Source: Phyllosticta citribraziliensis (Eukaryota). Taken from it: a stretch of DNA of 64,000 nucleotides. Within the stretch, counting starts at the first letter, position 1; each line of letters begins with the position of its first letter. The stretch covers positions 620,001 to 684,000 of the forward strand of contig NW_027117347.1 of the NCBI RefSeq assembly GCF_038025025.1, read 5' to 3'. Of the stretch, positions 4,408 through 50,160 are shown piece after piece. Below the pieces are notes generated by a model that worked only from the letters and a program-made list of their open reading frames with translations, was not told the origin of the DNA and did no database searches. A program made the position numbers and the translations under genes.

Positions 4408-6311
4408 CTAGTCGCCCTTTGGCGGCGACGGTCTCTTCAAAGGATGTGCCTCGGTATTCAACACGTAGTCGTCCAAGCTGATGACACTGGGCTCCTCGAA
4501 CAGCAGGTAGAAGTACTTGAGCGTCTCAGCGAGCCAAAAGCTCTCCATGCGATCCGCCTTCTCGACCCTTTGCGTCGTGACGTCGTCAAGCGCCGCGTGC
4601 GCAATGGGCGTCCGGGTAAGCTTGACGATGCGGTCAAACATGTCCCAGCCGCGCTCGAGCAGCGTGTCGTTGCCCGTGACGCGGTACAGAACAAACACCG
4701 ACTCGATGGCCTCGGGCCGCAGGATGTAGCGCGGGTCGGCGATTTTGGCGATGCCCTCGCGCAGGTGGTGCTTTTCGAACAGTTCCTCCGCCGAGTGGTG
4801 CGTCGTCCCCGTCTTCTCGACATCGGGCGCGTAGGCCTTTTCGATGGCGTCGCGCCACGTCTCGTAGTCCCAGCCGCACTCGTCTGTCGAATTGCACGGT
4901 ACGGTGTACATTATTTCGGGCATGATGCCGTTGGGGCTGTTGTCGTAGGCCCACAGACAGCCTTGCGTGAGCTGCCAGCCTACGTCGACGTCCTCCTCCG
5001 ACTTGAAGATTTTGCCGCCGACGGCGAACATGCCGCCGGCGAAGCACGTCAAGTGCTGGTTCTTGGGCTCCAGCCACACCTTTTGCGGTGGCGATTTGCC
5101 GTCCGGGCTCACGTCCCCAACCATGAGTACCGAGTCATTTTTGGGGACCATGGGGCGGTACAGCATGTACTTTTTGATTGGCGAAACTGAGTTGGAATAG
5201 AGCTTCTCGTATTGAGGCGTGGCGCCACCAAGGAGTAGATGTTGCTTTGCTACATTAGGACAGTCTTTTCCGAGGGCGGGAAACATACCTTGGGAAGATA
5301 TTCGTACATGGAGTCGGCCATGCCACCAATAGTAAATCCATTATACGACTTGAAGTCGAGCGTCTTGGCGTTCACGACGACTGGCCACATTCCAGGAAGC
5401 TTAGTCTGGCTCTGCTGCTCTTCGAGAAGATTCATGATCCTCGCAATGGCATCGTAGTACTTTGGGTCTCCGGTGGCCTGGCTCAGGCGTGTAAACTCCA
5501 AAGTCAAAGAACCAATCTCGGCCAGGAGCACGGTGTCATCGGCCTCCTGCTTTGCGCCCTCTGCTGCGTCCTTGAACTTCCAACGGGTGAGGGGCATGCG
5601 GTTGGGCGTGTCAAATGCCTTGTACAGCATTTCGCCCATCTCTTTTGCCTTTTCCAACAGGGAAGGGAATTTCCCGCCGCTGACATCGTACGCTGCCAGG
5701 AACCCACCAAGGTAGCGAATGGTCGTCTCAAAGACATTCAACTCGTCGAGAGAGCAAGTGCTGAAGTCTATCAGTTCAATGTCTTTCAACGAGTCTTGGA
5801 ATTCTTGGTGCAAGCCCATTATCCACAGCGTGTCGAGAGAGTCGACGAGCGTCGCAGCCCAGCCACCAAAAGTGTTGAGGGTACCGCCAGTGAGCGGCGT
5901 CACCTCGTCGCTGAGCCAGGCCTTTTTCCTGTAGCCAAGCCATGCGTGCTTGAATTCTTCTCTGACGGCGGCGACACGCTTGAGGCGCTTGTCACGTGCT
6001 TCCGATGTTTCATCGTCCGGATTGAATTGGTGCTGGATGCGAGGGATGTCGTTGCCAGGCTTGATCTCGGGCAGCGCAGCAAAGGAAGAGAGAGGGTAAT
6101 GCTGAGTGACGGTGCTCCAGCTGAATTTTGGATGCTTGGAGGCGGGCTCTAGTTTTGTTTGGTCGTCGTCGGACGGGGTCGAAGCGCCGATTGGAGAGGC
6201 GGGCGCCGACGGAGACGGAACGCGCCAATTACGAGGCTGATGCGACAAGTAAAGCACAAAGACGGCGAACGCGCCAATCGCCAGAGAGGCCTTGCGCCTC
6301 GCGGCTACCAT
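4408..6311 (-). CDS. Class I alpha-1,2-mannosidase (GH47) with N-terminal anchor; intron about 5288-5245
   Basis: Motifs FGGWAATLVDSLDTLWIMG, FETTIRYLGG, LAEIGSLTLEFTRLSQ, DSMYEYLPK, HLTCFAGGM, LRPEAIES, MESFWLAETLKYFYLLF, NTEAHP. Confidence 0.95.
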
Positions 6312-7296
6312 GGTGCTGTTCGGCTGGATTGAGTGATGGTTGGTAGAGGGCGACGTTTGAGGTTCAGTTGGATAGGTACTCGACTTGACGACGGGTTAAG
6401 GTGTCGGGTCGTGGCAAGGCCATCCTGCCTTCAATGTGATTGGCAGACGGCCATGGCCATCAAGGGGAGCGTTTGTTGGGCACCATGACGGCTCAGAACC
6501 ACAGGGCCGTCGCTTTTTCCTCATTCTTTCGCACAAGAAGAACAGTTGATGGGATTTTTGCCGTCGACGGTCGCGCATCCGCCAAAGGAATGCCAATGGC
6601 CTGACAGGCAGCTGCAGGTCGGAGCTGACGGGACCTGGGCTGGAGGCAGCAAATGGGAGCGACCACTCATTCACCAACCATCGTTGACCAAGCTCCAGGT
6701 TCTTTGCACACTCTCTACATGTGCTTTCACTGTCCTCCGTCGTGTCCTAGTTTCCTATTCTGTTCCTGCTCCTCCCAGTCCTCTTATTCTGTGCACCCCC
6801 GCTGACCAATCACGCCGGACGGGCAAGACTCCGACCACTCGCCATCTTGGTGACTTTGGACTGGTGTGCCTGGTTGCTCTCCGCTTCCGAGCTATTCTGC
6901 ACCTCTATAGCCGTGAAGCTGACCCATCATTTGCTAGTGCTCGCTGTAGTACATTGCCCGAGAGTCCGCTTCGTGTCGGAGCTGACAAATTCGACGCTGG
7001 ATTCCACGCACCGTCGAAGACGGTAGAGCGTGCTAACCGCCTTTTGGTGGTGCCCGTCTCTCGAATTATCAGCCATTGGCGAATAGGAGTCCAGAATTCC
7101 CAGGTCTTGGGTGCTGCATTTGGTCATGAAGTAGCTAATGTGGATCTCAAAGAGTACACGTACCAACATCTGATGTCACGGATTGCACCTACATAATTGA
7201 CACGGCGTGTCTATATCAAGCCTGGCCAATTCCCCTTCGCCTTCACCAATTCAATCACTTCTCCTTCATCGCAACCAGTGTCTCTCCCAAGCCAAC

Positions 7297-35933: not shown

Positions 35934-36949
35934 AGCTTGGCTAAAGTTGTAGTGGTGAGAGTGGTAATGGGCGCTGGAGAAAAGGTGGTACTCCGAAGAG
36001 TGGTGGATGTAAAGGATGTTGGCGGAGGATGCATGCGGAGCGATGGAGTGGGAACCGGGACAGCGCCAAGTCGTCACGTGTGAGGCTTGGCGGCCAGACG
36101 GACGGACTTGAGGTGGACGACTGCAGCAACGGTGACTCTTGCAGCAGAGCAATCAAGCCCTTCGCCGGCGTCTACGAAGACATCGATGTAGGGCTATGGA
36201 ATGCATACGATACTGTGGCATTGGAGGCTTCCATGACCCTGCTACCATGTGGAAGCGCCCGTGGTCTTCCCATACAAGTCAAGTCCACCTATTGCGACTT
36301 GGGCTGCGAAGAATCGCCAACCTGGGATATGAGTTGGTTGAGAGCCCGGCCAGCATCTCCTCGCCGAAGCGCTTGTATACATATTTCTACATAGGTAGTC
36401 GCACCGTCGTCGTGCAATCGAGGATTCGGTGGCGCAAGCATCGCTGCGCTGTGCTGCGCTGCGCTGCGCTGCGCCTGCAGAGGCTTGGAGCAGGCGCCGA
36501 ACTGAGCATCGATACATGGGTAAAAGTAGTTTGCAAGAAAAGTCGCAGTCCAACCGTATGCGAATGCTCTGCTGGTCATCCACTGGCTCTTTGTGTTGGT
36601 TGTGCTGGCCCAGCGCATGCGTTAGTCTTGTGTGTTCTGAGGGCGCGCTTTTGCGGTGCGGTCTACTCCTCCGCCAGCCGCTAGCTTGAGTACCTCTCTC
36701 ACCCACCATCCAACGTCGAGTTCCCCTCCACGCACCGCAGACCACGCCCTCGACAACGCACGCGGCCTGCCATCCGCCGAGCGCTGCTGCCATCTGTTCC
36801 AACCGGGAATGAGTGCTCAAAATCTCCAGCGCTCAACTCTGCCCGTCGGCGCGCCGTAGCCGGTGGTCCTCACACTTGCGGACCTCCGCGGTTCCCTTCA
36901 CCTCTACCGACTCCAACCACTCTGCCCCAGGACGGCTACCCGTGCCAAA

Positions 36950-39900
36950 ATGAAGCTTCGTAGCTTCAAACAAACTCCTTCCGACATTCCTCTCCCGCCG
37001 CGGACCCCTTCTCCAATCCACCACCTGATCGAACCTCTGACACCAACGTACCCCACCGCACACAAAGATGGACCACTGTCCGCCGCCCGCGATCCCAATG
37101 CTGCCGCCTCTGCTACCGCAATACACACTTCCACACTCGTCAATGGCCGAGGAGGTCAAGCCAAGGGATTGCAGAGGGGCCACAACAACATTGAAAGGGC
37201 TGCTCACCAGTCGCGTCATGCCCACACCAGACAGAATCGCGGTTCTTCTCACGGCTCCCCCATTGATGCGCTCGCAGATGTTGCGTCCTCGCTGGCATCG
37301 AGTCCAGTTTTTGCGCAGCCCGCTACCATAGCAATACAGCCACACGCCTCCCCGCGACCGACGACGCGCCCATTCGCCAACGGCTCGCGACACATACACA
37401 CAGCATCGGACGTTCAAGACTATCGTTATGTTCAGGCCCAGAATTATGGATACGCTCATGGAAACGACCTTGAGGAGCGACCATCCAAGCGCGCTCGTTC
37501 GGACGCCGGGAACTCCCATTTATTCCTTCAAGGCACAGCGAGACCTGCAACTAGCCATAACCCGAGCGGCAACTGGCCCAACGGCTTTGGCGAAAGTGTC
37601 TTTGGCGCAGGCCTCGCCCCGTATGCCTCACCATCGATCAATAATCTGGAGCTAGACGTTGCCCAAAGTTTGCTCCAGCTAAGGAGCAGCGGAAGTCTGG
37701 ATCAGTGTAGCAGCGCTCGAAAGTCGATGCCAGCACTCGACAACAACTCTTCTCGTGACGGTCTCGCCAACTGGCACCCAGCGTCCGTACACGGACTCGA
37801 TCCATCGATGCAAAGCTTTCGCCCAGATTCCGGTCTGATTGATGGACATCAGGCGAGACACCGCCATTCCATTGCCACCTACCAGCCAGAGCCCTTGCTG
37901 AAAGGTACAGACGCTATCGAAGCAACTCCCAGTTCGCAACCTCCTCCGAAAACGCAGACCCACACCCCGCCAGAAGACGTGCCTGATCTTGCCAATACAA
38001 ACAAGACCATCGAAAACCCTCCTCGGGCCGAGGGGAAAAAGGGGAAGTCACATCAAGGTTGGCCCAAGGGAAAGCCGCGTGGTCCTCGCAACAAGGGGGC
38101 AACCAAGAAGACCGCAAAAGTCGCCAACAAGGTCACCGAACTCGCGGCAGTCCCGCCAAAAGAACAGGGAGTCGATCAGCTGCAATCTCCCCAAAGTCTC
38201 AATGAGGTCCCACCTGGCAGCGCCTCTACAGAAAGGAAAGAGGTTCCACCTCCAGAGCAGGATCAAGAGATCCCGCACCGGCCTGCTCCAGTTCAGGCGA
38301 CTACAAGTACGGCTAAGCGACGCAACTCCTTTCCTGATGGCCATGGCTCTGATACTGCGAACCCCACAAAGGATAAGCTGCCGCTGGACAGAGCCGCCTC
38401 TGTGCCACCTGATAACAGCATGCTCATAAAGGCTTCGTCTTCTGCGGAGCCAGAACAGCTTCCGCGACTGGCCCCGGCCCCTATCGAGGAAGAAGTCACA
38501 ATCTGCGCTGGATGCAACTTTTCACGAGGACCATCCACGGGCCAGAATGATCAATGGATCGGGTGCAACGGGTGTCAGGGTTGGTATCATTTCGCTTGCG
38601 CTGGGTTCAGGAACGCAAAAGAAGTAAGCAGCGTTGACAAGTTCTACTGTCGAACATGTAAGCCAAAGTTTGGCTCCACCACCTGTAAGTGCCACTTTCT
38701 GGATCACAGCCTATTGCTAACGAATGCAGTTGTCCGCAAATCTAAGCGCGCCCATACGGCGGTCGATTACGCTGGCCTTAACGAAGGCGTCCTCCGAACC
38801 TCTGAAGATGAGCACGAACACCACTACATCCAGCCGATCAAAGACGGAACGTTTACCTTTCAACCTGAGACCTTCCCTCGCATGCGTCCTGAACTTGTGA
38901 CTGCTGAACACTTTGAAAAGAGCGGTGGGTTTAAGGAGCCTATCGTCATACCCGCGTGTTGGAACCCACGACCGAAAGTACCTGGCACAGATACGGAGAT
39001 GGCCGACGCAGCACCTGCAGCTCAAGATGAGAAACATGACGGATTTTACGATGATGTGGAATATGAGACTGCGCCTGACGATGGACAAGATCTTCTCGAC
39101 ATGGTCATCCCGGCAGATCTCACGGTGCGCAAGGTTGCAGATCTATATGGCCCCGAAGAGAAAGTTGAAGTCATCGATGTCAAGTCTCAAGAAGGAGAAG
39201 ATAAGAGATGGAACATGGCCAAGTGGGCAGATTACTACGAAGACGAGGGCGAAAAGCCCGTCCGCAACGTCATCAGCTTGGAATTCTCCCACAGCAGACT
39301 CGGACGTCTGGTGCGAAGGCCAAAGGTCGTGCGCGATCTCGATCTGCAAGATGCGGTCTGGCCACAGGACGAGACTGCCAAGGGAAACTTTCCCAAGGTA
39401 CAGTTCTACTGTCTAATGTCAGTCGCCGACTGCTATACCGACTTCCACGTCGACTTTGGAGGCTCCTCAGTCTTCTACCACATCATCAAAGGAAAAAAGA
39501 CCTTCTTCTTCATTCCGCCGAAGAAGCAACACCTTAAGAAGTACGAGGAGTGGTGCTTGTCGCCGGCGCAAAATTTCACATTCCTTGCGCACGAAACGAA
39601 AGAATGCTATCGGGTCGATCTTTCTGAAGGCGACACGATGCTTATTCCATCTGGTTGGATTCACGCCGTCTGGACACCTGCCAACAGTCTTGTCATAGGT
39701 GGCAATTTCCTGACCCGCTTGAACTATGGCATGCAAATCCGGGTAGCCGAAGTGGAGAAGAATACAAAGGTCGCGAGAAAGTTCCGGTACCCCTCCTTCC
39801 AAAAGGTCCTTTGGTATGCAGTCCTCCATTACCTCCAGGACGATCCTCTGCCCCCATCCGTGTCCCAACAATTCAGCGAAGGAAAACAATTCTCCCGCAG

Positions 39901-41858
39901 CACTCCAACCTACCTTGAACTGGACAAGTTTGGTCACAACTCGGATCCAGGACCGGAGAACTACAATGCTCGCTACTATTCCCAAAGTGAGCTTGAAGGT
40001 CTGCCAGACCTCGTCAAATACATTTTCCGGACGGTCATGATTTCGCAAGGTTGCCTTGAAGGCATCACTCAAGAGGTCCGCAACGCTGTGACCAGGTCTA
40101 TTCCCAAGGGCCACGGCGAACCCCTCGAAATCATCAAGACATTCGCCATGTGGACAGCATGGAAGCGAGGCAATGAGGATATTCCGACATGGGCACATCC
40201 AGATGCAGAGCTCCCCGATACTGGAGTACCAGGAGAGAAGAAACTCAGCAACGCCGCCCTGAAGAGACTCGAGCGCAAGGCATTCATCGAGAACTACCGC
40301 GCAGCCGCCCCGGAACGTGCACAGTCGGCTAGATTGCGGACGAAGGCATTGGAAGGCGACAGTGCTGAAGCAATGTCCCTGGTCAAGCACACCAGTTCGC
40401 CCAAGACCTCCGTGCTGGGTCCAAAACGCATCGCTTGTGATGCATGTCGCAGGCGTCGAATCAGGTGCAAGCACAAAGATGAAGTGTCGTCTCCTATTTC
40501 GCCACAGGCGAATGCTTCCGGAGAGCGACGGCCTAGCGCTCCAATCGTCGCTGTCATGATGCCGTCGCCTCTGAACCCTGAGGCCGTATCCCCGTTGAAC
40601 GGTATTCACCCGCAGATTGTCAATGGCCATCTTCCTGCTGCAGTCGTTTCGGACGTTCCCCAGTCTGCAGAGATTCCAGAAATAAGGCGGAGAAGCAAGG
40701 CTTGCTTGGATTGCCGGAGGAGCAAAGTACGTGTTTATCTAGACACTTTGTATGGCTCGCATGCTTACGATTCTCTAGCGACGTTGCATACACGATGAAC
40801 ACGGCAACGTAGATCCGGTCAAGGCTCAGGAACAACCAGTTCCGCGGGGCAGACGGCGTGTCAGTGGCGGAGACGAAGCCGATGGGTTCAAGACATCGAG
40901 GCTAGACAGCGGTCTCAATTTCGGCCAGCAAGGACTATATCCGCCACCAGAACAAGACTTTGTTCCGGATCATCAAGAAATGATGGCGCCTAGTGCTTAC
41001 CCCCAGCTCTCAGCCGAAGAATCTTCCGATGTTCTCATGGTTGATGCACATTCTGTCGACGCTCAACCTGAACCACAACCACCGGTCGATGCCATGAGTA
41101 GCGTTATAGACCCAATGCTCGAGAATTACCCTCAATTCGGAACGATCGACGAGGAGGTCGATCAAATACAGGTCAATGGGGCACATCCTGTTGATCTAGC
41201 CACAGCTACGGAAGTGCAAGTGCCCGACTCGGGTGACGTTGCTCTCCCGAGCACGGAGAGTGTGCACGAGGTGCCCGTTGCTCCCATGGCTCCCATGGCA
41301 CGCATGATCGTCTCTACCAAGCAACCCTCGATGATTGGTGGCGAACCGTCTCAGCCAGTCTCTCCTCACGGCCCCAATGGTGTCCAGCAATCCTCGCCGT
41401 TGACAGAACTCGGCAATTCTATGTCTCCTGAGCGGCCGCGCATGGAAATGCTGATCGACCCTGCACTCGACTCGCCTCTTGAACGTCGACAGTCTTTGCG
41501 AACCTCTAGGCCAGTAGAAAGGTATTCGGAAACGGCAAATTCTACGCGCTTGTCACAACCGCCAAAATCTCGCCGTACCTCTTCCAGGACCCCTGCACCA
41601 GCAAAGAGCCCTAGCATCAGCGGAAACAGTGTCAAGGCGCCACACACTGTAACTCCTGCAAGACAACGAAGAAACAGCAATGCTGTCTTGGAGTTTGTGG
41701 ATACAGCACCTAATAGTGCAGCGAAAACCGTGAGCAGCGAGCCAAAGCAGCGCACGCTGAGCCAATTGGAAAACCCGGACCAAAACGAGGCCAGCATGAG
41801 GTTGATTAGAGAGATGATGGCAGGAGACAGGGGATTGCGGCGGCGAGGGTCAAGGTAA
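36950..41858 (+). CDS. JHD1: JmjC + PHD histone H3K36 demethylase (Jhd1/KDM2-like); introns 38685-38729 and 40727-40778
   Basis: PHD (CAGC...WIGCNGCQGWYHFACAG...FYCRTC); JmjC motifs NVISLE, YTDFHVDFGGSSVFYH, IPSGWIHAVWTP. Confidence 0.93.
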
Positions 41859-43063
41859 GACGTTGTCATTTCTCGCGTGGCGTTTCTCAACGGTGTTTCT
41901 TTCCTCGAGCTTTTTGGGACGTGGTGGTGGCAGTTTCAACGTAGGAAGTGCAGCTGCACATGTCCATTTGGAACAAAAACAAAACAAAACGGAAGAGGCC
42001 AAAACTGGTTCGGCATGGCAAATGGAGGATACGGTAGGGATTGGATGGAACTTTAAAGAGCTTTGTCAGGTGCAAACCTATATTTTGTGAGGGGGCGTTG
42101 TACAGACATCTGAGAGCATCATTCGCGTCTCAACAGTTGCTATTCTCTCTCTTCGACCATTTTTACTCTACGTCTATCGCTTCTAGCTTTGGTCGCTCGT
42201 TGCGGGTGGAAGGTGTGTCATTCATTTATGGTGTAGAGGGGTGGCGTTTAGATTTTGTTCGGGTCGAGGTCTCCAGAATGCTTGATGCTGTGGGAATAGC
42301 TCATGCCTGGAAGATTATCGTCGCGGGTCTTCTCATCGTGGGTGGCTTTGCTGCTGTTTATATTTTCTTTGTCTCTTTACTCTCTCTTATAATAGTTGTT
42401 GATTTTCTTTTCATTAGCCGTGTGGGAGGCATTTTGTTCGTCTTTGCTGCGGAGTCTGGATGGTGCGTGAAGGAAACTGGTAGTTAGGTGGATAGAATCA
42501 TTTTGCGCAAATGCATCTGTAGTTCACAAGTTGCTCTGATGCTTTCGAGTGATGTGCGAGATTTGCAGCCAGACTAAGGACTGTTTGCTAAATCTACGTG
42601 AGAATCTCAATCCAATCGGGGTGCCGTGGTGTTGAGCTCACGCCGATCATGCTCGGCCGCATTGACCCGTCAGGGTTCCCGTTCAAGACAGCTTAAGCGC
42701 TTGGCTAACAGCACAACGTCTCTTGCTGTCACCTCCGGCAGCCTCCGATGATGAGGTATCAAAGGATTGATAACCCGGATGCAGTTGCCGATCGCAGTCA
42801 CGGCCAGTTACAGCCATGATCTGTGTCACGGGCAAGCGGCAGTCGTAAGAACGCCTCCGACTGGTCCACAACCTAAGACCAAGGCCAGGTACATACACGA
42901 AGCATCCTCAGGTACCACGCTGACACGACATACCGCCTCTCAGACCACTTGACTCGGATACATTCTTTCCTCGTACCTTTGTAACAGCTTCATCCGTTGG
43001 TCCTCAAACATTACAACTCCTTCCTCCACAATCTATACCTAAGCTCTTAGTCCTTCCATCACC

Positions 43064-44380
43064 ATGGACACCTGGCTCCCCCAAGAAGTGATTCGCCGCA
43101 AACGCGATGGCTTTGCGCTCAGCACCACCGATATCCAACGCTTCGTGGCTGGCATCACCGACAACACACTCTCCGAGGGACAGATAGCCGCCTTCGCCAT
43201 GGCCGTGTTCATGCGAGGCATGGCGCTCGAAGAACGCATCGCCTTCACTGCAGCCGTACGCGACAGCGGGCAAGTGCTGCGCTGGGAGCTACCAGGCCCG
43301 GTCGTCGACAAACATAGCACGGGCGGCGTGGGCGACTTTATCAGCTTGCCGCTGGCACCGCTGCTGGCCGCTACGGGCTGCTACGTTCCCATGATCAGCG
43401 GACGCGGTCTCGGACACACGGGCGGGACTTTGGACAAGCTTGAGAGCGTGCCCGGCTACAACGTCTTCCCCAACCCGGAGAAGTTTCGAGACGTGGTGCG
43501 CGAGGTGGGCTGCGCCATCATCGGGCAGACGGCGGACCTGGCGCCTGCGGACAAGAAGCTATATGCTATCCGCGATGTCACAGCTACGGTCGAGTCGATC
43601 GACCTCATCACGGCGAGTATTCTGGGGAAGAAGCTTGCAGCAGGGTTGGACGTACTGGTCATGGACGTCAAGACTGGGAATGGCGCGTTCATGGCGAAGC
43701 TGGAAGAGGCGGAGCGCCTGGCAGAAAGCATTGTGCTCGTGGCAAATGGTGCTGGAGTTAGGACGAGGGCTCTGGTCACGGACATGGGACAGCCGTTGGC
43801 GAGGAGCGCTGGCAACGCCGTCGAGGTGGAGGAGGCCGTGGCGCTGCTCAAGGGCGAGGTCAGAAGTGAGCGCTTGTGGGAGATTACCCTAGCCATTGCC
43901 GAAGAAACCCTCGTCGAGGCCCGCATTGCGTCGTCCAAGGAGGAAGCACGCAAAAGTCTGTTGGAGGCTTGGAAGAGCGGCGCTGCGCTCGACCGCTTCC
44001 AGCAGATGATCACTGCCCTGGGTGGTCCTGCGGACTTTACCTCGAAATACGAGGACTATGTGCCCAAGGCTCCGGTCGTCAAGCCCATCTACGCAGACAA
44101 AAACGGCGTGGTCAATGAGGTCGACACCAGGTCCGTTGGTCTCGCCGTGGTTGCTCTGGGTGGAGGTCGAAAGCGCCCATCCGACGCTGTGGATCCTGCC
44201 GTTGGCTTTACGAAGCTGGCTTTCCCTGGCGAAGCAGCTGATTCCGATCACCCCATCGGCTTTGTGCATGCGCAGACTGAGCAGCAGGCTGATGATGCTG
44301 CTTTGACACTTAAAGCTGCATACTCCATTGGCGAGGCAAGCGTTTCGTCCACCTCACTTTCTGTTTACAAGCGGCTTTAG
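43064..44380 (+). CDS. deoA: Thymidine phosphorylase, bacterial DeoA-like, intronless
   Basis: LPQEVIRRKRDG, SEGQIAAFAMAV, DKHSTGGVGD, SGRGLGHTGGTLDKLE, APADKKLYAIRDVTATV, KKLAAG, DVKTGNGAFM, LGGGR. Confidence 0.93.
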   Translation: MDTWLPQEVIRRKRDGFALSTTDIQRFVAGITDNTLSEGQIAAFAMAVFMRGMALEERIAFTAAVRDSGQVLRWELPGPVVDKHSTGGVGDFISLPLAPLLAATGCYVPMISGRGLGHTGGTLDKLESVPGYNVFPNPEKFRDVVREVGCAIIGQTADLAPADKKLYAIRDVTATVESIDLITASILGKKLAAGLDVLVMDVKTGNGAFMAKLEEAERLAESIVLVANGAGVRTRALVTDMGQPLARSAGNAVEVEEAVALLKGEVRSERLWEITLAIAEETLVEARIASSKEEARKSLLEAWKSGAALDRFQQMITALGGPADFTSKYEDYVPKAPVVKPIYADKNGVVNEVDTRSVGLAVVALGGGRKRPSDAVDPAVGFTKLAFPGEAADSDHPIGFVHAQTEQQADDAALTLKAAYSIGEASVSSTSLSVYKRL

Positions 44381-44856
44381 ACGCCATTGATTTGGGCATC
44401 ACTAGACCAGTAGTCAAAATAAAACACAGAATTGGACTTGCTGCTATGCTGTGGACTTCGAATATCTAAATGCCCAAAGTGGTAATGCATATCACGTGTA
44501 CTCGCAGCACGGGCGTTTCCGCCGTACTGCATCATCGCGAGAGGTTGATCCCAGCTCAAGCATCAACTTTCTCCCTCACGCCCCGCGAACCGCGTCCACC
44601 CCACCAACCCACCAGCTTCAATACGAGGGCCAAGCAATCGTGGACGCGCGCCTAGCCCGCACCCAATTTGAACGTCCTCCGATCCATCACACGCGAAAGC
44701 TCTCCACGAAACCAAAGATCCTCGCATGCCGAATCGATAGCAGCCGCCACTGCTTGCCTCACCATCACCTCCGTCCACAGCCTGCAGTACCACACAAATT
44801 CGCCTGCGCGGCGCCGCCTCTCCAACCTACCTCATCGATCGACCCACGCTCCCGCC

Positions 44857-47800
44857 ATGTCGTCCATCCCCGCCGAAACACGCGTCTGGATCAGCGACAA
44901 CCTGCTGCGGCTAGCCGGCCTGTCGGACCCAACAGTCGTCGACTTCGTCGCGGCCACGGCGTCAAGCGCCAAATCGGCGCCAGCGCTTGCGGACAAGCTG
45001 GGCAGCTTCCTCGACGACGACGCGGGCGACTTGCGGGGCTTCGCCGAGTCGCTGTTTGCTAAAGTGGGGAAGCGCGCGGATGCGAAGGGCAGTGCGGGCG
45101 CAAAGGAGAAGGACAGAGATGGCAAGGGCCAGCGCAAAAAATACGCGTTGTTGGATATGGAGGAGGATTCGATGCCGCCGCCCCCACCCCCAGCACCGTC
45201 GGTGAGAGACGACAAGGAGAGGAGCGAGAGGCGCAGAGAGAGAAGGGATCGGAAACGTGAGCGGAGTCGTGATCGGGAGGACAGAGACAGGCATCGGTCG
45301 AAGAAGCTGCGGCGCAAAGATGTTGACGACTTTGAAGGCCGATGGGGCGATGAAGAGTTTGTCGAGGAAGAGGCAGAGGAGGAACCTTATGAGGGATCGA
45401 GTCCAAAGAGAGCCCGGTTGGATGATGGGTCTGCGAGTCCGCGACCGTCGGGCAGGGGGAAGGACGAAGAGCCGGAAGAAGAATTGGACGAAGAAGAGAG
45501 GGATCGGAGAGAAAGGGAAGCGTTTGAGAAGAGGCTGCGAGAAAAGGATGACAAGTCTACGAAAAAGGTCGTCGAGGATCGCACGCAAAAGGATGCTGCG
45601 CGACGAAGAGCTCTAGCCGACGATGCGGAAGCTAGAGATGCTGCCCTGTCCGACCTGCGGTTGCGTTCGAGGCAAGAGTATCTCAAGAAGAGAGAGGCAG
45701 AGCAGCTTGCTCTGTTGCGGAAACAAGTTGCGGAAGAGGAAGAGGAGGAACGCCGAGCTGCCCCTGGCGAACTCACACAGGCGGAGCTGGACTCTTTCAA
45801 GAGAAACAGAGAGACGCTGCAGCTTGCAGAGGAGCGTTTGCGTGTGGACGAGCACACAGATGGCTACGCGCTTCCGGAGGACTATATCACAGAAAAGGGC
45901 AAGATTTCGCGGAAGAAAAAGGAGGAGGCGCTTTACAAACGCTACGTTGATCGCGATGAATACGGCCGCGAGCGATTCGTCACGGAGCAAGAGGAGTGGG
46001 AGAGGGAGCAGACGGCAAAAGCAAAGGCTCAGATTGCACGTCCAGAGCGCGTCAACGAGGGCGATTATGAATACGTCTTTGACGATTCGCAAAAGATCAA
46101 CTTCATCATGGACCAGGCGCTGCCTGGCCAGAGGCTGAGCAAAGAGCAGCAAATGCTGGCCAAACAGATAACCGCCGCAGAAGCCAAGGCCAAGTCCATC
46201 GACGAAACCCGCAAGAGTCTCCCCATCTACACGTGGAAAGACCAGCTCATGGAAGCAATATCGCAGTATCAATGTGTCGTCGTCGTGGCCGAGACTGGGT
46301 CGGGAAAGACGACGCAAATCCCGCAGTTCTTGCACGAGTCGGGCTACACGTCCAAGGGCGAGAATGGCGAAGCTAAGAAGATGGTTGCTTGCACCCAACC
46401 CAGGCGTGTGGCTGCCATGTCAGTCGCCGCGCGTGTGAGCGAGGAAATGGGCGTCAAGCTGGGCAAGGAGGTCGGCTACTCGATCCGTTTTGAGGACAAT
46501 ACAGACCCCAAGAACACGATTGTCAAGTTCATGACGGATGGAATGCTGCTGCGAGAGTTTTTGACGGATCCGAGTCTGGAGAATTACAGCGCCATCATCC
46601 TCGACGAGGCTCACGAGCGTACCTTGGCGACTGACATTCTGTTTGGCTTGCTCAAGGACATTGCAAGATTCCGGCCGGAACTCAAGCTCATCATCTCGTC
46701 AGCCACGGTTGATGCGCAAAAGTTTAGTGAATACTTTGACGATGCTCCCATCTTCAACGTGCCAGGCAGACGATTTCCTGTCAACGTCTACTACACCCCT
46801 CAGGTATGCTTACACTTGCTCCACTCGATTCTGCGTACTAACAATTCAACCCAGCCCGAAGCCAATTACCTTTCGGCAGCCGTCACAACAGTGTTCCAGA
46901 TCCACATGTCCCAGCCTCGAGGAGACGTTCTCGTCTTCTTGACTGGCCAGGACGAGATTGAGAAAATGGCCGAAGACTTGGCAGAGACGTCACGGAAACT
47001 GGGCTCGGCAGCACCAGAGCTCATCATCTGTCCCATTTATGCCAACCTACCGCAAGAGGAACAGGCCAAGATCTTTGAGCCGACACCGCCAGGAAAGTGC
47101 AGAAAGGTCGTATTGGCCACCAACATTGCAGAGACATCGCTCACGATTGAGGGCATCGTGTACGTCATCGATCCGGGCTATGTCAAGGAAAATGTGTACA
47201 ACCCCCGGACAGGAATGGAGTCGCTCGTGGTTACGCCGTGCAGTAGGGCGTCGGCCAACCAGAGAGCTGGTCGTGCTGGCAGAGTCGGTGCTGGTCACTG
47301 TTTCCGACTATACACCAAGTGGGCCTACTACAATGAGCTGGAGGCCAACACGACGCCAGAAATCCAACGGACGAATCTTTCGAGCACTGTGCTGCTGCTC
47401 AAGAGTTTGGGAATCAACGACTTGGTTGGGTTCGACTTCATGGACGCCCCGCCGGCAGACACGCTGATTCGGTCATTGGAGCTGCTCTATGCTCTGGGGG
47501 CTTTGAACGACAAGGGCGAGCTGACCAAGAGGGGTCGTCAAATGGCCGAGTTCCCTGTCGACCCCATGGTGTCTGCTGCCATTCTCAAGGCAGACCAGCT
47601 CAAATGCGTTGAAGAGGTCCTCAGCATTGTGTCCATGCTGGGCGAGTCAGCTGCTCTCTTCATCCGGCCAAAGCAACAGAAGATTCACGCAGACTCGGCT
47701 CGAGCACGGTTCACGATGAAGGAGGGCGGCGACCATCTCACGCTGCTCAACGTTTGGAACCAGTGGGTGGATGCCGACTTCAGCTACGTGTGGGCCAAGG

Positions 47801-48258
47801 AGAACTTTTTGCAGCAGAAGTCGCTGAGTCGGGCGCGAGACGTGCGCGACCAGCTTGCTCGCCTTTGTGACCGAGTCGAGGTCACGATTGAGGCGAGCGG
47901 AGCCAACGACCACGTGCCGATTCTCAAGTCGTTGCTGGCAGGCTTCTTCCCCAATGCAGCGCGGCTGCAGCGCGGCGGCGACAGCTACCGGACGGTCAAG
48001 AATGGCATGACGACGTACCTGCACCCCAGCTCGGTACTGACCAAGACTGGCGACAGCCCGCCCAAGTTTGTGTGCTACTACGAGCTGGTGCTCACGAGCA
48101 AGGAGTACATGCGCAATGTCATGCCGATCCCGAACCCGGCGTGGCTGAACGAGGTGGCGCCGCACTACCACAAGATGAAGGACCTGGAGAGCCTGGGAGG
48201 GGACGGCAAAAGGGTGCCGCGGGGAGGGCCAGGCGGCGCGAGTGGGAGCAGAGTGTGA
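44857..48258 (+). CDS. PRP2: DEAH-box pre-mRNA splicing helicase, Prp2/Cdc28/DHX16 type; in-frame intron 46804-46854
   Basis: [37 protein letters not shown]-terminal SRQEYLKKRE and EQEEWE blocks typical of DHX16/Cdc28. Confidence 0.9.
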   Translation: MSSIPAETRVWISDNLLRLAGLSDPTVVDFVAATASSAKSAPALADKLGSFLDDDAGDLRGFAESLFAKVGKRADAKGSAGAKEKDRDGKGQRKKYALLDMEEDSMPPPPPPAPSVRDDKERSERRRERRDRKRERSRDREDRDRHRSKKLRRKDVDDFEGRWGDEEFVEEEAEEEPYEGSSPKRARLDDGSASPRPSGRGKDEEPEEELDEEERDRREREAFEKRLREKDDKSTKKVVEDRTQKDAARRRALADDAEARDAALSDLRLRSRQEYLKKREAEQLALLRKQVAEEEEEERRAAPGELTQAELDSFKRNRETLQLAEERLRVDEHTDGYALPEDYITEKGKISRKKKEEALYKRYVDRDEYGRERFVTEQEEWEREQTAKAKAQIARPERVNEGDYEYVFDDSQKINFIMDQALPGQRLSKEQQMLAKQITAAEAKAKSIDETRKSLPIYTWKDQLMEAISQYQCVVVVAETGSGKTTQIPQFLHESGYTSKGENGEAKKMVACTQPRRVAAMSVAARVSEEMGVKLGKEVGYSIRFEDNTDPKNTIVKFMTDGMLLREFLTDPSLENYSAIILDEAHERTLATDILFGLLKDIARFRPELKLIISSATVDAQKFSEYFDDAPIFNVPGRRFPVNVYYTPQVCLHLLHSILRTNNSTQPEANYLSAAVTTVFQIHMSQPRGDVLVFLTGQDEIEKMAEDLAETSRKLGSAAPELIICPIYANLPQEEQAKIFEPTPPGKCRKVVLATNIAETSLTIEGIVYVIDPGYVKENVYNPRTGMESLVVTPCSRASANQRAGRAGRVGAGHCFRLYTKWAYYNELEANTTPEIQRTNLSSTVLLLKSLGINDLVGFDFMDAPPADTLIRSLELLYALGALNDKGELTKRGRQMAEFPVDPMVSAAILKADQLKCVEEVLSIVSMLGESAALFIRPKQQKIHADSARARFTMKEGGDHLTLLNVWNQWVDADFSYVWAKENFLQQKSLSRARDVRDQLARLCDRVEVTIEASGANDHVPILKSLLAGFFPNAARLQRGGDSYRTVKNGMTTYLHPSSVLTKTGDSPPKFVCYYELVLTSKEYMRNVMPIPNPAWLNEVAPHYHKMKDLESLGGDGKRVPRGGPGGASGSRV

Positions 48259-48666
48259 TGTAAGGTGGTTGGAGTAGTGGTGTCAATGGTGTAGATAGAC
48301 GGTAAATCAATGACTCGTCTTGAGGTGGGCGGGATTGGCGCCATGACGTCTATGGGCGAGCGGCAGGGAAGTCATGGCCAATGGAGCCTCCCCGCCGCAC
48401 CTGTCATCAAACATGTTTAAACGCTGCTCCCGACCGACCTTCCAAACCTTTCGCCTCTCACCACGAGCTGCACACAAACCTCACCTGCATCTCTCCTCGT
48501 ACATTCCACTTCGCCTAAGCGCCCACGCCCTGCGAGATCCCTAGGTAGCGCCCCACTGCATGCATGCACGTCAACTCCTTTAGCGCCCGCCCGCTCTTTG
48601 GCCAACTTTAGCCGCTGGAGCAAACGGAACCTACAAAAGCTGCCGACTGCTCCAACCGTTGCCCAA

Positions 48667-50160
48667 ATGTAAGCTGGTCTTCATTCTTTGCTCCACTCCC
48701 AAAAGCATTTCCGTTGCCAATCTTTCCGTTTTGTGGCTCTTTCTCTGCTGTTGTGCTGTTTCTACTACCTACACCATTCCATTGAAACAATTGCGACTAC
48801 TTCAAACATCTTTCCTCTCCCCTTCAAAATGGCCATATTTGCGTACCCTCCCCATCCTCCTCCGCCTCCTCCGCCCTACAATCAACCGCCGGCATTTCTC
48901 GCGCGCGCGCCGTCTCGTTCCCGCTCGCTCACAGTTCTCCCCGTTCGCAACAGGAACCGCTCGCTCTCAATTCGCTCTGCGCGGAACAGGGACGGCAGCG
49001 AGGGCACGCCCTCGTCCAAGCCGCTGCCCAAGCACCGCTTCACCATAACATCGCTGCGTGGAATGCAACAGCCGGAGCTTTCGAAGCGTCTGTTCAAGCT
49101 CATCAAGTCGGAGAACCACGCCATTAGCGCCCACGAAACCGCCGGAAGAGAGCGCGCCAGCATCGCCGCGCAGTTGAGCGAATGGGGCGAGGCCACGGGC
49201 GATGATGCTGTATCCGACATCAGCGACAAGTTGGGCGTGCTGATGGCAGAAATTGCGGAACAGGAAGACCTGTACTCTCAGGGCTTGGAAGAATATCGCG
49301 GCGTGCTGAAGCAGATTCGGAATACCGAAAGCAGTGTGCAGCCTAGCAGAGACCACAAGATCAAGGTTTGTTTACCAAAGCTCCCGGGTTCAAGCATTGA
49401 GTGAGGCGTATTGCTTGAGGCTCGATCGAAACAATTGCTAACGCGTCTTGCAGGTTTCCGACGAAATCGCTAAATTGAAGTACAAGGAGCCGCAGAGTAC
49501 CAAAATCGTACAGCTAGAGCAAGAGCTGGTCCGCGCTGAGGCCCAATCCCTGGTGGCCGAGGCGCAACTCACCAACATTGTGCGTTGACCCATACTCCTC
49601 ACTCCGCCACCCGACTAACCTGGAAACAGACTCGTCAAAAGTTCAAAGAGGCCTACTCAACGCATTTTGCGGCAGTCATTGAACGCGCCGAAAAGCAGGC
49701 ACTCCTGGCCAAACACGCTCGACGACTGATCAACCTCCTTGACGACTCGCCAATCGTCCCCGGCGAGTCGCACCCACCTTACGCCTCGTCAAGTTCTCCC
49801 GAAGCTGCTCGCGAAGTGCTCAACGACGCTGAAGATGAGCTGCGCTCCTGGCGTCCGAGCTGGGAAGAAGTCATGAGCATGGCAGGCGGCGGCCGCCTGG
49901 GCGTCGGCGGATTGGGCACCACGGCGCCCCCACCGCAAGCGCAGTCAGAGTACGGCGGCCCGGTCAGGGACAACTACTCCGAAACTCAGGGCGGCAGTAC
50001 TGTTGGAACTGAAGTCGAGTCCGACTTGCACCCGGCACTGCGGTCGAAGCCGAGAACCACCAGCGGCGAAAGTGAGAAGAGCAGGACGCAGCAGAATCCG
50101 CCATATCCCATCTCTGAGGCAGAGAGAGAAAGAGCAAACGCAAACGCGGTCATGATTTGA
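48667..50160 (+). CDS. Eisosome BAR-domain protein, Pil1/Lsp1 family; first exon ambiguous; introns 49366-49453 and 49580-49629
   Basis: PELSKRLFKLIKSE, QLSEWGE, DDAVSDISDKLGVL, IRNTESSVQPSR, LEQELVRAEAQSLVAEAQLTNI|TRQKFKEAY, LLDDSPIVPGE. Confidence 0.9.

Follow-up and report, generated by a model that had tools for sequence, protein, structure and literature searches.

A bacterial-type thymidine phosphorylase gene (deoA) was found on the plus strand, at positions 43064..44380, of a 64,000-nucleotide stretch of the Phyllosticta citribraziliensis genome (contig NW_027117347.1, positions 620,001 to 684,000), the whole of which is hereafter called the window. This intronless gene lies between two intron-containing fungal genes, one coding for a JmjC/PHD histone-demethylase-like protein (JHD1-like) and the other for a PRP2-type helicase, a setting already described in the initial annotation of this DNA and borne out here by Pfam matches and by spliced GT..AG joints in RNA. 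According to our analysis, it is very probable that a functional thymidine phosphorylase gene was gained once from a Pseudomonas-related bacterium. The initial annotation had proposed the transfer of a bacterial gene into this fungal chromosome. The transfer is well supported but it is not special to this genome, being old and common to at least three families of one order, the Botryosphaeriales.

The open reading frame (ORF) extends from ATG to stop and encodes 438 amino acids (aa). It is preceded by ...catcaccATGGac, and the CACCATGG found just before the ATG corresponds to the eukaryotic start context that had been pointed out earlier. The stop-to-stop frame opens at 43043, merely seven codons upstream of the ATG, leaving no room for a hidden N-terminal exon. 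Three Pfam families matched the protein, all above their gathering scores, namely PF02885 Glycos_trans_3N (residues 7-69), PF00591 Glycos_transf_3 (79-309) and PF07831 PYNP_C (349-422), and the protein has the three-domain layout of type II nucleoside phosphorylases (helical bundle, alpha/beta domain and PYNP C-terminal domain). The protein passed two NCBIfam models, namely the thymidine phosphorylase model TIGR02643 (644.1 bits, cut-off 570.7) and NF004490 (611.8, cut-off 269); the equivalog model of the broad-specificity pyrimidine-nucleoside phosphorylases (PyNP), NF004747, gave 381.7 bits, under its cut-off of 559. In the PDB, 16 distinct sequences matched the window protein. The best of them was the thymidine phosphorylase of Escherichia coli, 1azy (residues 4-437, 514.9 bits, E 1.6e-153), followed by pyrimidine-nucleoside phosphorylases at about 310-333 bits and by the human thymidine phosphorylase at 281-288 bits (288.1 for 2j0f). 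In a protein atlas, all the clusters retrieved were of thymidine phosphorylase or pyrimidine-nucleoside phosphorylase, and they gave no further information on distribution. The DeoA match at 43064..44380 is far above chance level. The ORF, Pfam, TIGR02643 and the 1azy alignment, along with an RNA contig, thus uphold the earlier description of an intronless frame of 438 aa with full DeoA motifs, and the gene is best explained as a functional one, coding for a type II nucleoside phosphorylase predicted to be specific for thymidine and deoxyuridine (DeoA, EC 2.4.2.4).

The distribution of the protein was then considered in a search of 5.8 billion proteins, from which the best 120 of 8000 scored candidates, down to a score of 609 bits, were retained. 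They comprise the window protein itself, seven fungal-type matches with 78-83% identity and 112 others with 64-73% identity. The seven fungal-type orthologues, located on contigs of up to 1.99 Mb, include those of Aplosporella prunicola, Lasiodiplodia hormozganensis, Neofusicoccum parvum, Diplodia intermedia and D. corticola. With the exception of one sequence bearing the label Pantoea sp., all named members of the 112 others belong to Pseudomonas or Stutzerimonas. No fungus outside the Botryosphaeriales-type was found among these best 120 matches. As a control, a PRP2 exon matched fungi of many classes, with identity sliding from 99% to about 75%. A broad vertical distribution in fungi, named in the initial annotation as the outcome that would speak against a transfer, was not observed, the seven Botryosphaeriales-type matches being the only fungal ones to beat bacteria among the best 120 of 8000.

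Phylogenetic analysis was performed in two steps, i.e., a quick IQ-TREE tree of 85 rows and a careful maximum-likelihood tree (LG+C20+F+G4) of 45 rows picked from those 85. The 45 rows consisted of eight fungal sequences, 23 of Pseudomonas type, 2 from Flavobacteriales metagenome-assembled genomes (MAGs) and 12 from other Gammaproteobacteria; the trees cover fungal and bacterial sequences, and the distance to animals was judged from bit scores. In the careful tree, the eight fungal proteins form one clade (support 100/99), the Pseudomonas-type proteins form another (96/88), and the two clades are sisters (99/87), as expected for a bacterial gene gained by horizontal transfer. The quick tree agrees with this topology. 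The stem of the fungal clade measures 0.22 changes per site, and the successive branches inside it are Aplosporella, the window, P0003, P0006, Neofusicoccum, Lasiodiplodia and two Diplodia. This order matches the Botryosphaeriales families and sub-clades presented in the accessible part of PMC3825231. In the same part of that study, whose dating is termed preliminary, the family splits of the order are placed between 57 (28-100) and 103 (45-188) million years ago. Because the gene would predate the split of the order's families, the transfer would be at least as old as these splits.

The physical linkage and the transcription of the gene were examined by comparing four runs (X2, X5, X6 and X14) out of 23 with positions 38000-48500. 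Contig depth was not used for ranking expression, and coverage gaps between contigs were not taken as transcript ends. Run X2, which bears the same organism label as the best-matching run and belongs to a different study, contains contigs with the GT..AG joints 38684>38730, 40726>40779 and 46800>46852. These spliced joints indicate that X2 is RNA-derived and confirm the introns of both neighbours. In this run, a contig of 1293 letters covers 43017-44286 with 0 differences and no joint; it is the unspliced thymidine phosphorylase message, starting at least 47 nucleotides (nt) before the ATG. The same three spliced joints were found in X14, an RNA-Seq run from a plant metagenome, in which two contigs cover 43267-43996 with 36 and 92 differences in 730 letters. 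Hence, two relatives appear to transcribe the thymidine phosphorylase gene in plant material. Run X6, made of DNA from a relative about 95% identical and bearing another organism label, provides a contig of 2398 letters over 42582-44908 (101 differences, 13 gaps) that bridges the upstream spacer, the entire gene, the downstream spacer and the first PRP2 codons. Run X5, from a more distant relative (about 86%), provides a 1626-letter contig that leads from 44373 across diverged pieces of spacer to 44870-45636 (104 differences in 767 letters) and so ties PRP2 to the 3' end of the gene there as well. The intron-bearing neighbours, the bridging X6 contig and the joining X5 contig show that the gene is physically integrated in a fungal chromosome. 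The X6 and X5 contigs are independent of the assembly, and a missing linkage to the flanks, the other outcome that the initial annotation had set against its proposal, was not encountered.

Base composition is also host-like. The G+C content at third codon positions (GC3) is 0.705 for the thymidine phosphorylase gene, compared with 0.586-0.739 for eight host coding stretches and 0.922 for the deoA of the Pseudomonas MAG. The relative codon use of the gene correlates with that of the pooled host genes at 0.856, host genes compared with the remaining host set giving 0.764-0.909. Nucleotide identity to the Pseudomonas gene amounts to 70% over 970 nt and stops at the ORF borders. Host-like composition together with transcription show that the gene has been domesticated.

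The residues expected for catalysis are preserved throughout. The motifs DKHSTGGVGD and PMISGRGLGHTGGTLDK, together with Y167/R170/S185/K189 and F209/M210, are unchanged across the eight fungal and six Pseudomonas sequences, and pair in the 1azy alignment with D83-T87, M111-T123, Y168/R171/S186/K190 and F210/M211 of the E. coli enzyme. At the level of single positions, K83, H84, S85, S94, M110, S112, T122, Y167, R170, S185, K189 and F209 are invariant in the same fungal and Pseudomonas sequences. The window protein matches all of the E. coli residues K84, H85, S86, S95, S113, T123, Y168, R171, S186, K190, F210 and Met111, which we take, from the structural literature, to be the phosphate- and pyrimidine-binding residues of thymidine phosphorylase. 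Among them, Met111 presumably separates thymidine phosphorylase from PyNP, which carries Lys at this position. Beyond these motifs, 181 alignment columns are invariant in 36 Pseudomonas-type proteins; 164 of them hold the same residue in all eight fungal proteins, and the fungal copies depart from it at 17. The length of the eight fungal proteins is 438-441 aa, their identity to Pseudomonas (62.9-72.1%) overlaps the spread inside the Pseudomonas type (65.1-98.9%), and root-to-tip branch lengths are alike on the fungal and bacterial sides of the tree. Such invariant motifs, the 164 conserved columns and the similar root-to-tip lengths are the signature of continued purifying selection on catalytic function. 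By likeness to the solved dimers (57% identity class), the protein would be expected to form a homodimer.

Other origins of the gene were weighed against these data. The window protein and the DeoA of a Pseudomonas MAG share 68% identity, and the ORF is intronless, as could result from bacterial contamination or from a chimeric assembly in which a Pseudomonas-like ORF was wrongly joined to fungal DNA. However, the X6 DNA contig, obtained in another run under another organism label, crosses both junctions, an RNA contig from the spliced-RNA run covers the gene, and seven further fungal-type orthologues lie on contigs of their own among the best 120 of 8000. Besides, GC3 is far from the Pseudomonas value (0.705 vs 0.922), and nucleotide identity to the Pseudomonas gene is just 70%, with homology ending at the ORF ends. 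The probability of such an artifact is therefore practically nil. Vertical descent from an ancient eukaryotic gene, with losses in almost every other fungus, could be invoked given that animals possess thymidine phosphorylase (the human one matching at 288 bits) and that the fungal copies track the family tree of the order. Instead, the fungal clade is placed inside the sampled Gammaproteobacteria as sister to the Pseudomonas type (99/87), the identity between fungi and Pseudomonas (62.9-72.1%) overlaps the range found within the Pseudomonas type (65.1-98.9%), and the E. coli enzyme scores 514.9 bits compared with 288.1 for the human one. No non-Botryosphaeriales fungus occurs among the best 120 of 8000 matches, whereas the PRP2 exon matches many fungal classes. 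Vertical descent is accordingly regarded as extremely improbable.

The number of transfers and the fate of the enzyme call for the same scrutiny. Repeated, independent acquisitions from related bacteria by different Botryosphaeriales lineages would be conceivable considering that synteny was compared in close relatives of the window only and that deoA is mobile among bacteria, two Flavobacteriales MAGs grouping beside the clade. Nevertheless, the eight fungal proteins fall in one clade (100/99) with a stem of 0.22 and with an internal order equal to that of the families of the order, which makes such repeated acquisition very unlikely. There were 0 columns invariant in the 36 Pseudomonas-type rows yet fixed to another residue in all eight fungal rows; because there are none, this column test speaks neither for nor against a single origin, and the argument against several transfers comes from the tree. 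As for the function, the gene could have been kept while no longer encoding a thymidine phosphorylase, either as a relic or after recruitment for another role or substrate. The deo partners were indeed not co-transferred in the window, and the fungal copies differ at 17 of the 181 Pseudomonas-invariant columns, but all the phosphate- and base-binding residues named above are invariant and the gene is transcribed. Furthermore, root-to-tip lengths resemble the bacterial ones, and the ORFs are intact in eight lineages of an order whose families, in the accessible part of PMC3825231, split 57-103 million years ago. A loss of the original function thus carries a low probability.

Some points nonetheless weigh against the preferred reading of a functional enzyme gained once from a Pseudomonas-related donor. 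The tree draws its Pseudomonas-type rows from the best matches of the fungal query, its remaining gammaproteobacterial rows being samples, and a closer donor may have gone unsampled. Synteny was seen just in close relatives (about 95% and 86% nucleotide identity), and the single insertion rests on protein monophyly. Fungal thymidine phosphorylases of another origin, scoring less than 609 bits, would escape the best 120 of 8000. Saccharata proteae, a member of the same order, appears among the PRP2 matches (91%) and is absent from the named thymidine phosphorylase matches among these 120; this gap may reflect a loss in that lineage or a gene missed by annotation. Finally, contig depth cannot rank expression.

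With a single gain from a Pseudomonas-related bacterium as the preferred reading, the following scenario can be proposed. A gammaproteobacterium near the Pseudomonas lineage would have passed the deoA coding sequence, and nothing else, to an ancestor of the Botryosphaeriales, before the divergence of the Aplosporellaceae, the Phyllostictaceae-like lineage of the window and the Botryosphaeriaceae. The coding sequence would have been inserted between the JHD1-like and PRP2 genes, where it would have acquired a fungal promoter and start context. It would then have shifted to the codon composition of the host and been inherited vertically under purifying selection.

The enzyme is predicted to convert thymidine (or 2'-deoxyuridine) and phosphate to thymine (or uracil) and 2-deoxyribose-1-phosphate. 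This reaction would be sited in the cytosol, since the protein has no N-terminal extension and no convincing C-terminal signal. Thymidine kinase is generally held to be absent from fungi, and a literature search on fungi without this kinase returned cancer and mitochondrial papers only. Because the fungus presumably lacks thymidine kinase, the enzyme would serve the catabolism or scavenging of DNA-derived nucleosides instead of the salvage of thymidine to dTMP. If the oxidative thymine pathway is present, it could convert the base to uracil; the sugar phosphate could enter central metabolism via phosphopentomutase and aldolase. We thus only infer a physiological role in nucleoside catabolism.

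It is possible, albeit doubtful, that with this phosphorylase the Botryosphaeriales obtained a direct phosphorolytic route for thymidine and deoxyuridine breakdown that other ascomycetes lack, aiding growth on plant-tissue DNA and altering the handling of nucleoside analogues. The Botryosphaeriales are wood-inhabiting endophytes and latent pathogens, and the in-planta RNA contigs of two relatives are compatible with a DNA-scavenging role without demonstrating it. If this proposal were true, the enzyme would make a measurable contribution to growth on DNA from dying plant tissue, and these fungi would differ from others in handling pyrimidine nucleoside analogues. More generally, the enzyme is unremarkable among thymidine phosphorylases, and bacterium-to-fungus transfers of single metabolic genes are well known. 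The present case is therefore sound but unsurprising; it concerns a textbook enzyme and opens no long-standing question. It is a clean, well-supported case of an old bacterium-to-fungus transfer of one metabolic enzyme. In an order holding important tree and fruit pathogens, at least three families have kept the gene intact and expressed. The gene is a possible marker for the order and a starting point for the study of nucleoside catabolism in these fungi.

A literature search on thymidine phosphorylase transfer in fungi or Botryosphaeriaceae yielded a single relevant paper, PMC11051394 (2024). In its accessible part, gene BDLA_00012548 of Botryosphaeria dothidea is listed in Table 4 as a bacteria-derived horizontal gene transfer, with PYNP_C as domain, thymidine phosphorylase as annotation and 'Bacteria' as donor. 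The transfer is thus already known, having been flagged in PMC11051394 for a related species. BDLA_00012548 shares its annotation and its fungal order with the window gene, and, judging from annotation and order, is almost certainly its orthologue. The accessible part of PMC11051394 devotes one sentence and one table row to this gene, without donor lineage, distribution, expression or locus. Compared with that content, the present work makes a modest addition, consisting of the donor lineage, the order-wide spread, the minimum age, the JHD1-PRP2 insertion site, the host-like codon use, the RNA evidence and a measure of constraint.

Comparison with known enzymes helps to situate the fungal protein. 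The DeoA proteins of Pseudomonas and Stutzerimonas share with it, among the best 120 of 8000 matches, 64-73% full-length identity, as well as the three domains, the length, all catalytic motifs and the position as sister clade. Their genes differ from it in setting, since Pseudomonas deoA sits in a nucleoside/DNA scavenging cluster and has a GC3 of 0.92, whereas the fungal gene stands alone between genes with spliceosomal introns, with a eukaryotic start context and a GC3 of 0.705. The E. coli thymidine phosphorylase (1azy, 1tpt, 2tpt) aligns over 4-437 and shares D83-T87, M111, S113, T123, Y168, R171, S186, K190, F210 and M211, but it is more distant than the Pseudomonas type and belongs to a bacterial deo operon. 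The animal enzyme TYMP/PD-ECGF (2j0f, 1uou) has the same fold family and reaction; it differs by its score (288 bits vs 515 for E. coli) and by its length of about 480 aa, which includes an N-terminal extension, and the fungal gene does not derive from it. The oxidative salvage of thymidine in fungi involves pyrimidine deoxyribonucleoside 2'-hydroxylase, thymine 7-hydroxylase and iso-orotate decarboxylase. It shares with the phosphorylase the route from thymidine to thymine and uracil, but its enzymes are unrelated 2-oxoglutarate dioxygenases. Unlike this pathway, the phosphorylase would release thymine directly and keep the sugar as deoxyribose-1-phosphate.

In a Pseudomonas MAG (locus L001:27-12042), deoA was observed within an apparent cluster for the scavenging of extracellular DNA and nucleosides. 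This cluster comprises a TonB-dependent receptor, ExbB, a 5'-nucleotidase, a CNT nucleoside transporter, DeoC, DeoA, an unassigned ORF, a PNP-type phosphorylase, an S1/P1 nuclease and an endonuclease/exonuclease/phosphatase (EEP) protein. No such partners accompany the fungal gene, in line with the earlier remark that deo neighbours were missing: the DeoC, PNP_UDP_1 and phosphopentomutase families gave 0 Pfam matches in 48 window ORFs (16 + 32), and the ten neighbours of Pseudomonas deoA, compared with the window by tblastn, gave nothing better than E 0.03. Remnants of a bacterial deo cluster beside the gene were rejected on these grounds, all neighbour proteins having E>=0.03 and nucleotide homology being confined to the ORF. 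Judging from these comparisons, deoA alone would have been retained from the donor cluster within the window.

Bacterial relatives were also sought in genome contigs and metagenomes. A genome-contig scan, whose query-derived patterns were idiosyncratic, retrieved a Pseudomonas MAG at 68% together with 79 diverse loci at 36-57%, which were used as outgroups. Genome samples were drawn around the Pseudomonas MAG G001, whose gene is 68% identical to the window protein. In the class of G001, a true thymidine phosphorylase (E<1e-100) was present in 9 of 301 genomes, the eight others being 43-57% identical; in its order, the enzyme (E<=1e-80) was present in 27 of 301 genomes, the 26 others being 51-59% identical. 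True thymidine phosphorylase is thus patchy in the donor-like group, and many of these genomes carry instead a paralogue of about 500-550 aa with 27-36% identity. In metagenome contigs, relatives were encoded by 397 of the 599 matched stretches; the best 80, all with at most 50% identity, were taken as bacterial, and no fungal copy was found among these contigs. In the careful tree, the two Flavobacteriales MAG sequences (L002 and L005, with matches at 6001-7251 and 6001-7242) occupy a long shared branch beside the clade formed by the Pseudomonas-type and fungal proteins (99/96). This branch lies away from the other sampled bacteria and could represent a second inter-phylum transfer or a long-branch effect.

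Two minor features of the fungal proteins were also noted. An insertion of 2-3 residues at alignment columns 76-78 (window residues 75-76), before PGPVVDKHSTGG, is found in P0003, P0004, P0005, P0007 and P0008. Its carriers are most of the Botryosphaeriaceae-type thymidine phosphorylases, and it is absent from the window protein, Aplosporella, P0006 and all Pseudomonas proteins. The C-terminal KRL of the window protein was considered as an acquired peroxisomal signal and rejected, the fungal ends being variable (KRL, QRV, KRM, QRL, LRL, MRL). This possibility is further weakened by some Pseudomonas proteins ending in KRL or ARL.

Regarding the surrounding DNA, the upstream JHD1-like gene occupies 36860..41858 (+), with an approximate 5' limit, and was recognized by the Pfam families JmjC, JHD, Cupin_8 and PHD and by spliced RNA. 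Its introns lie at 38685-38729 and 40727-40778 on the plus strand, as given by the GT..AG joints of runs X2 and X14. The RNA contig of this gene extends about 600 nt beyond the stop at 41858 (41859-42463), suggesting a long 3' untranslated region (UTR), and a 148-aa ORF at 42041-42487 in this 3' region has no Pfam match. Between the end of this contig at 42463 and the start of the thymidine phosphorylase contig at 43017 in X2 lies an intergenic region (42464..43016) that is presumed to bear the promoter and that shows no homology to the Pseudomonas deo cluster. The minimal 5' UTR of deoA spans 43017..43063 (+), and ends in the CACCATGG start context; only adapter-like letters precede 43017 in the X2 contig, and the true transcription start may be located upstream. 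A minimal 3' UTR may be placed at 44381..44430 (+), where an X14 contig from a relative passes the stop and ends at 44430, followed by adapter-like letters, which is weak evidence.

The downstream gene encodes a DEAH helicase of PRP2/Cdc28/DHX16 type at 44857..48258 (+), with the Pfam families DEAD, Helicase_C, HA2_N, HA2_C and OB_NTP_bind. Its C-terminal exon is 99% identical to a Phyllosticta citrichinensis protein of 1116 aa, 90-93% identical to those of Neofusicoccum, Macrophomina, Botryosphaeria, Lasiodiplodia, Saccharata and Diplodia, and at most 79% identical to those of other fungi, values that assign the window to a Phyllostictaceae-like lineage of the Botryosphaeriales. The 51-nt GT..AG intron of this gene (46801-46851, + strand, joint 46800>46852), spliced in X2 and X14, is in frame and stop-free; the naive ORF at 44668-48258 therefore continues across it and contains 17 spurious residues. 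With the start placed at the ATG at 44857, the spliced product would have 1116 aa, which is the length of the Phyllosticta model. Further ORFs of the window correspond, according to Pfam, to fungal Zn2Cys6, GH47, HemD, DEAD helicase, Sof1/WD40, Pil1, protein kinase, GST and SBF transporter families. Among them, the Pil1 eisosome gene is situated just downstream of PRP2 in two frames, 48673-49401 and 49540-50157, presumably separated by an intron.

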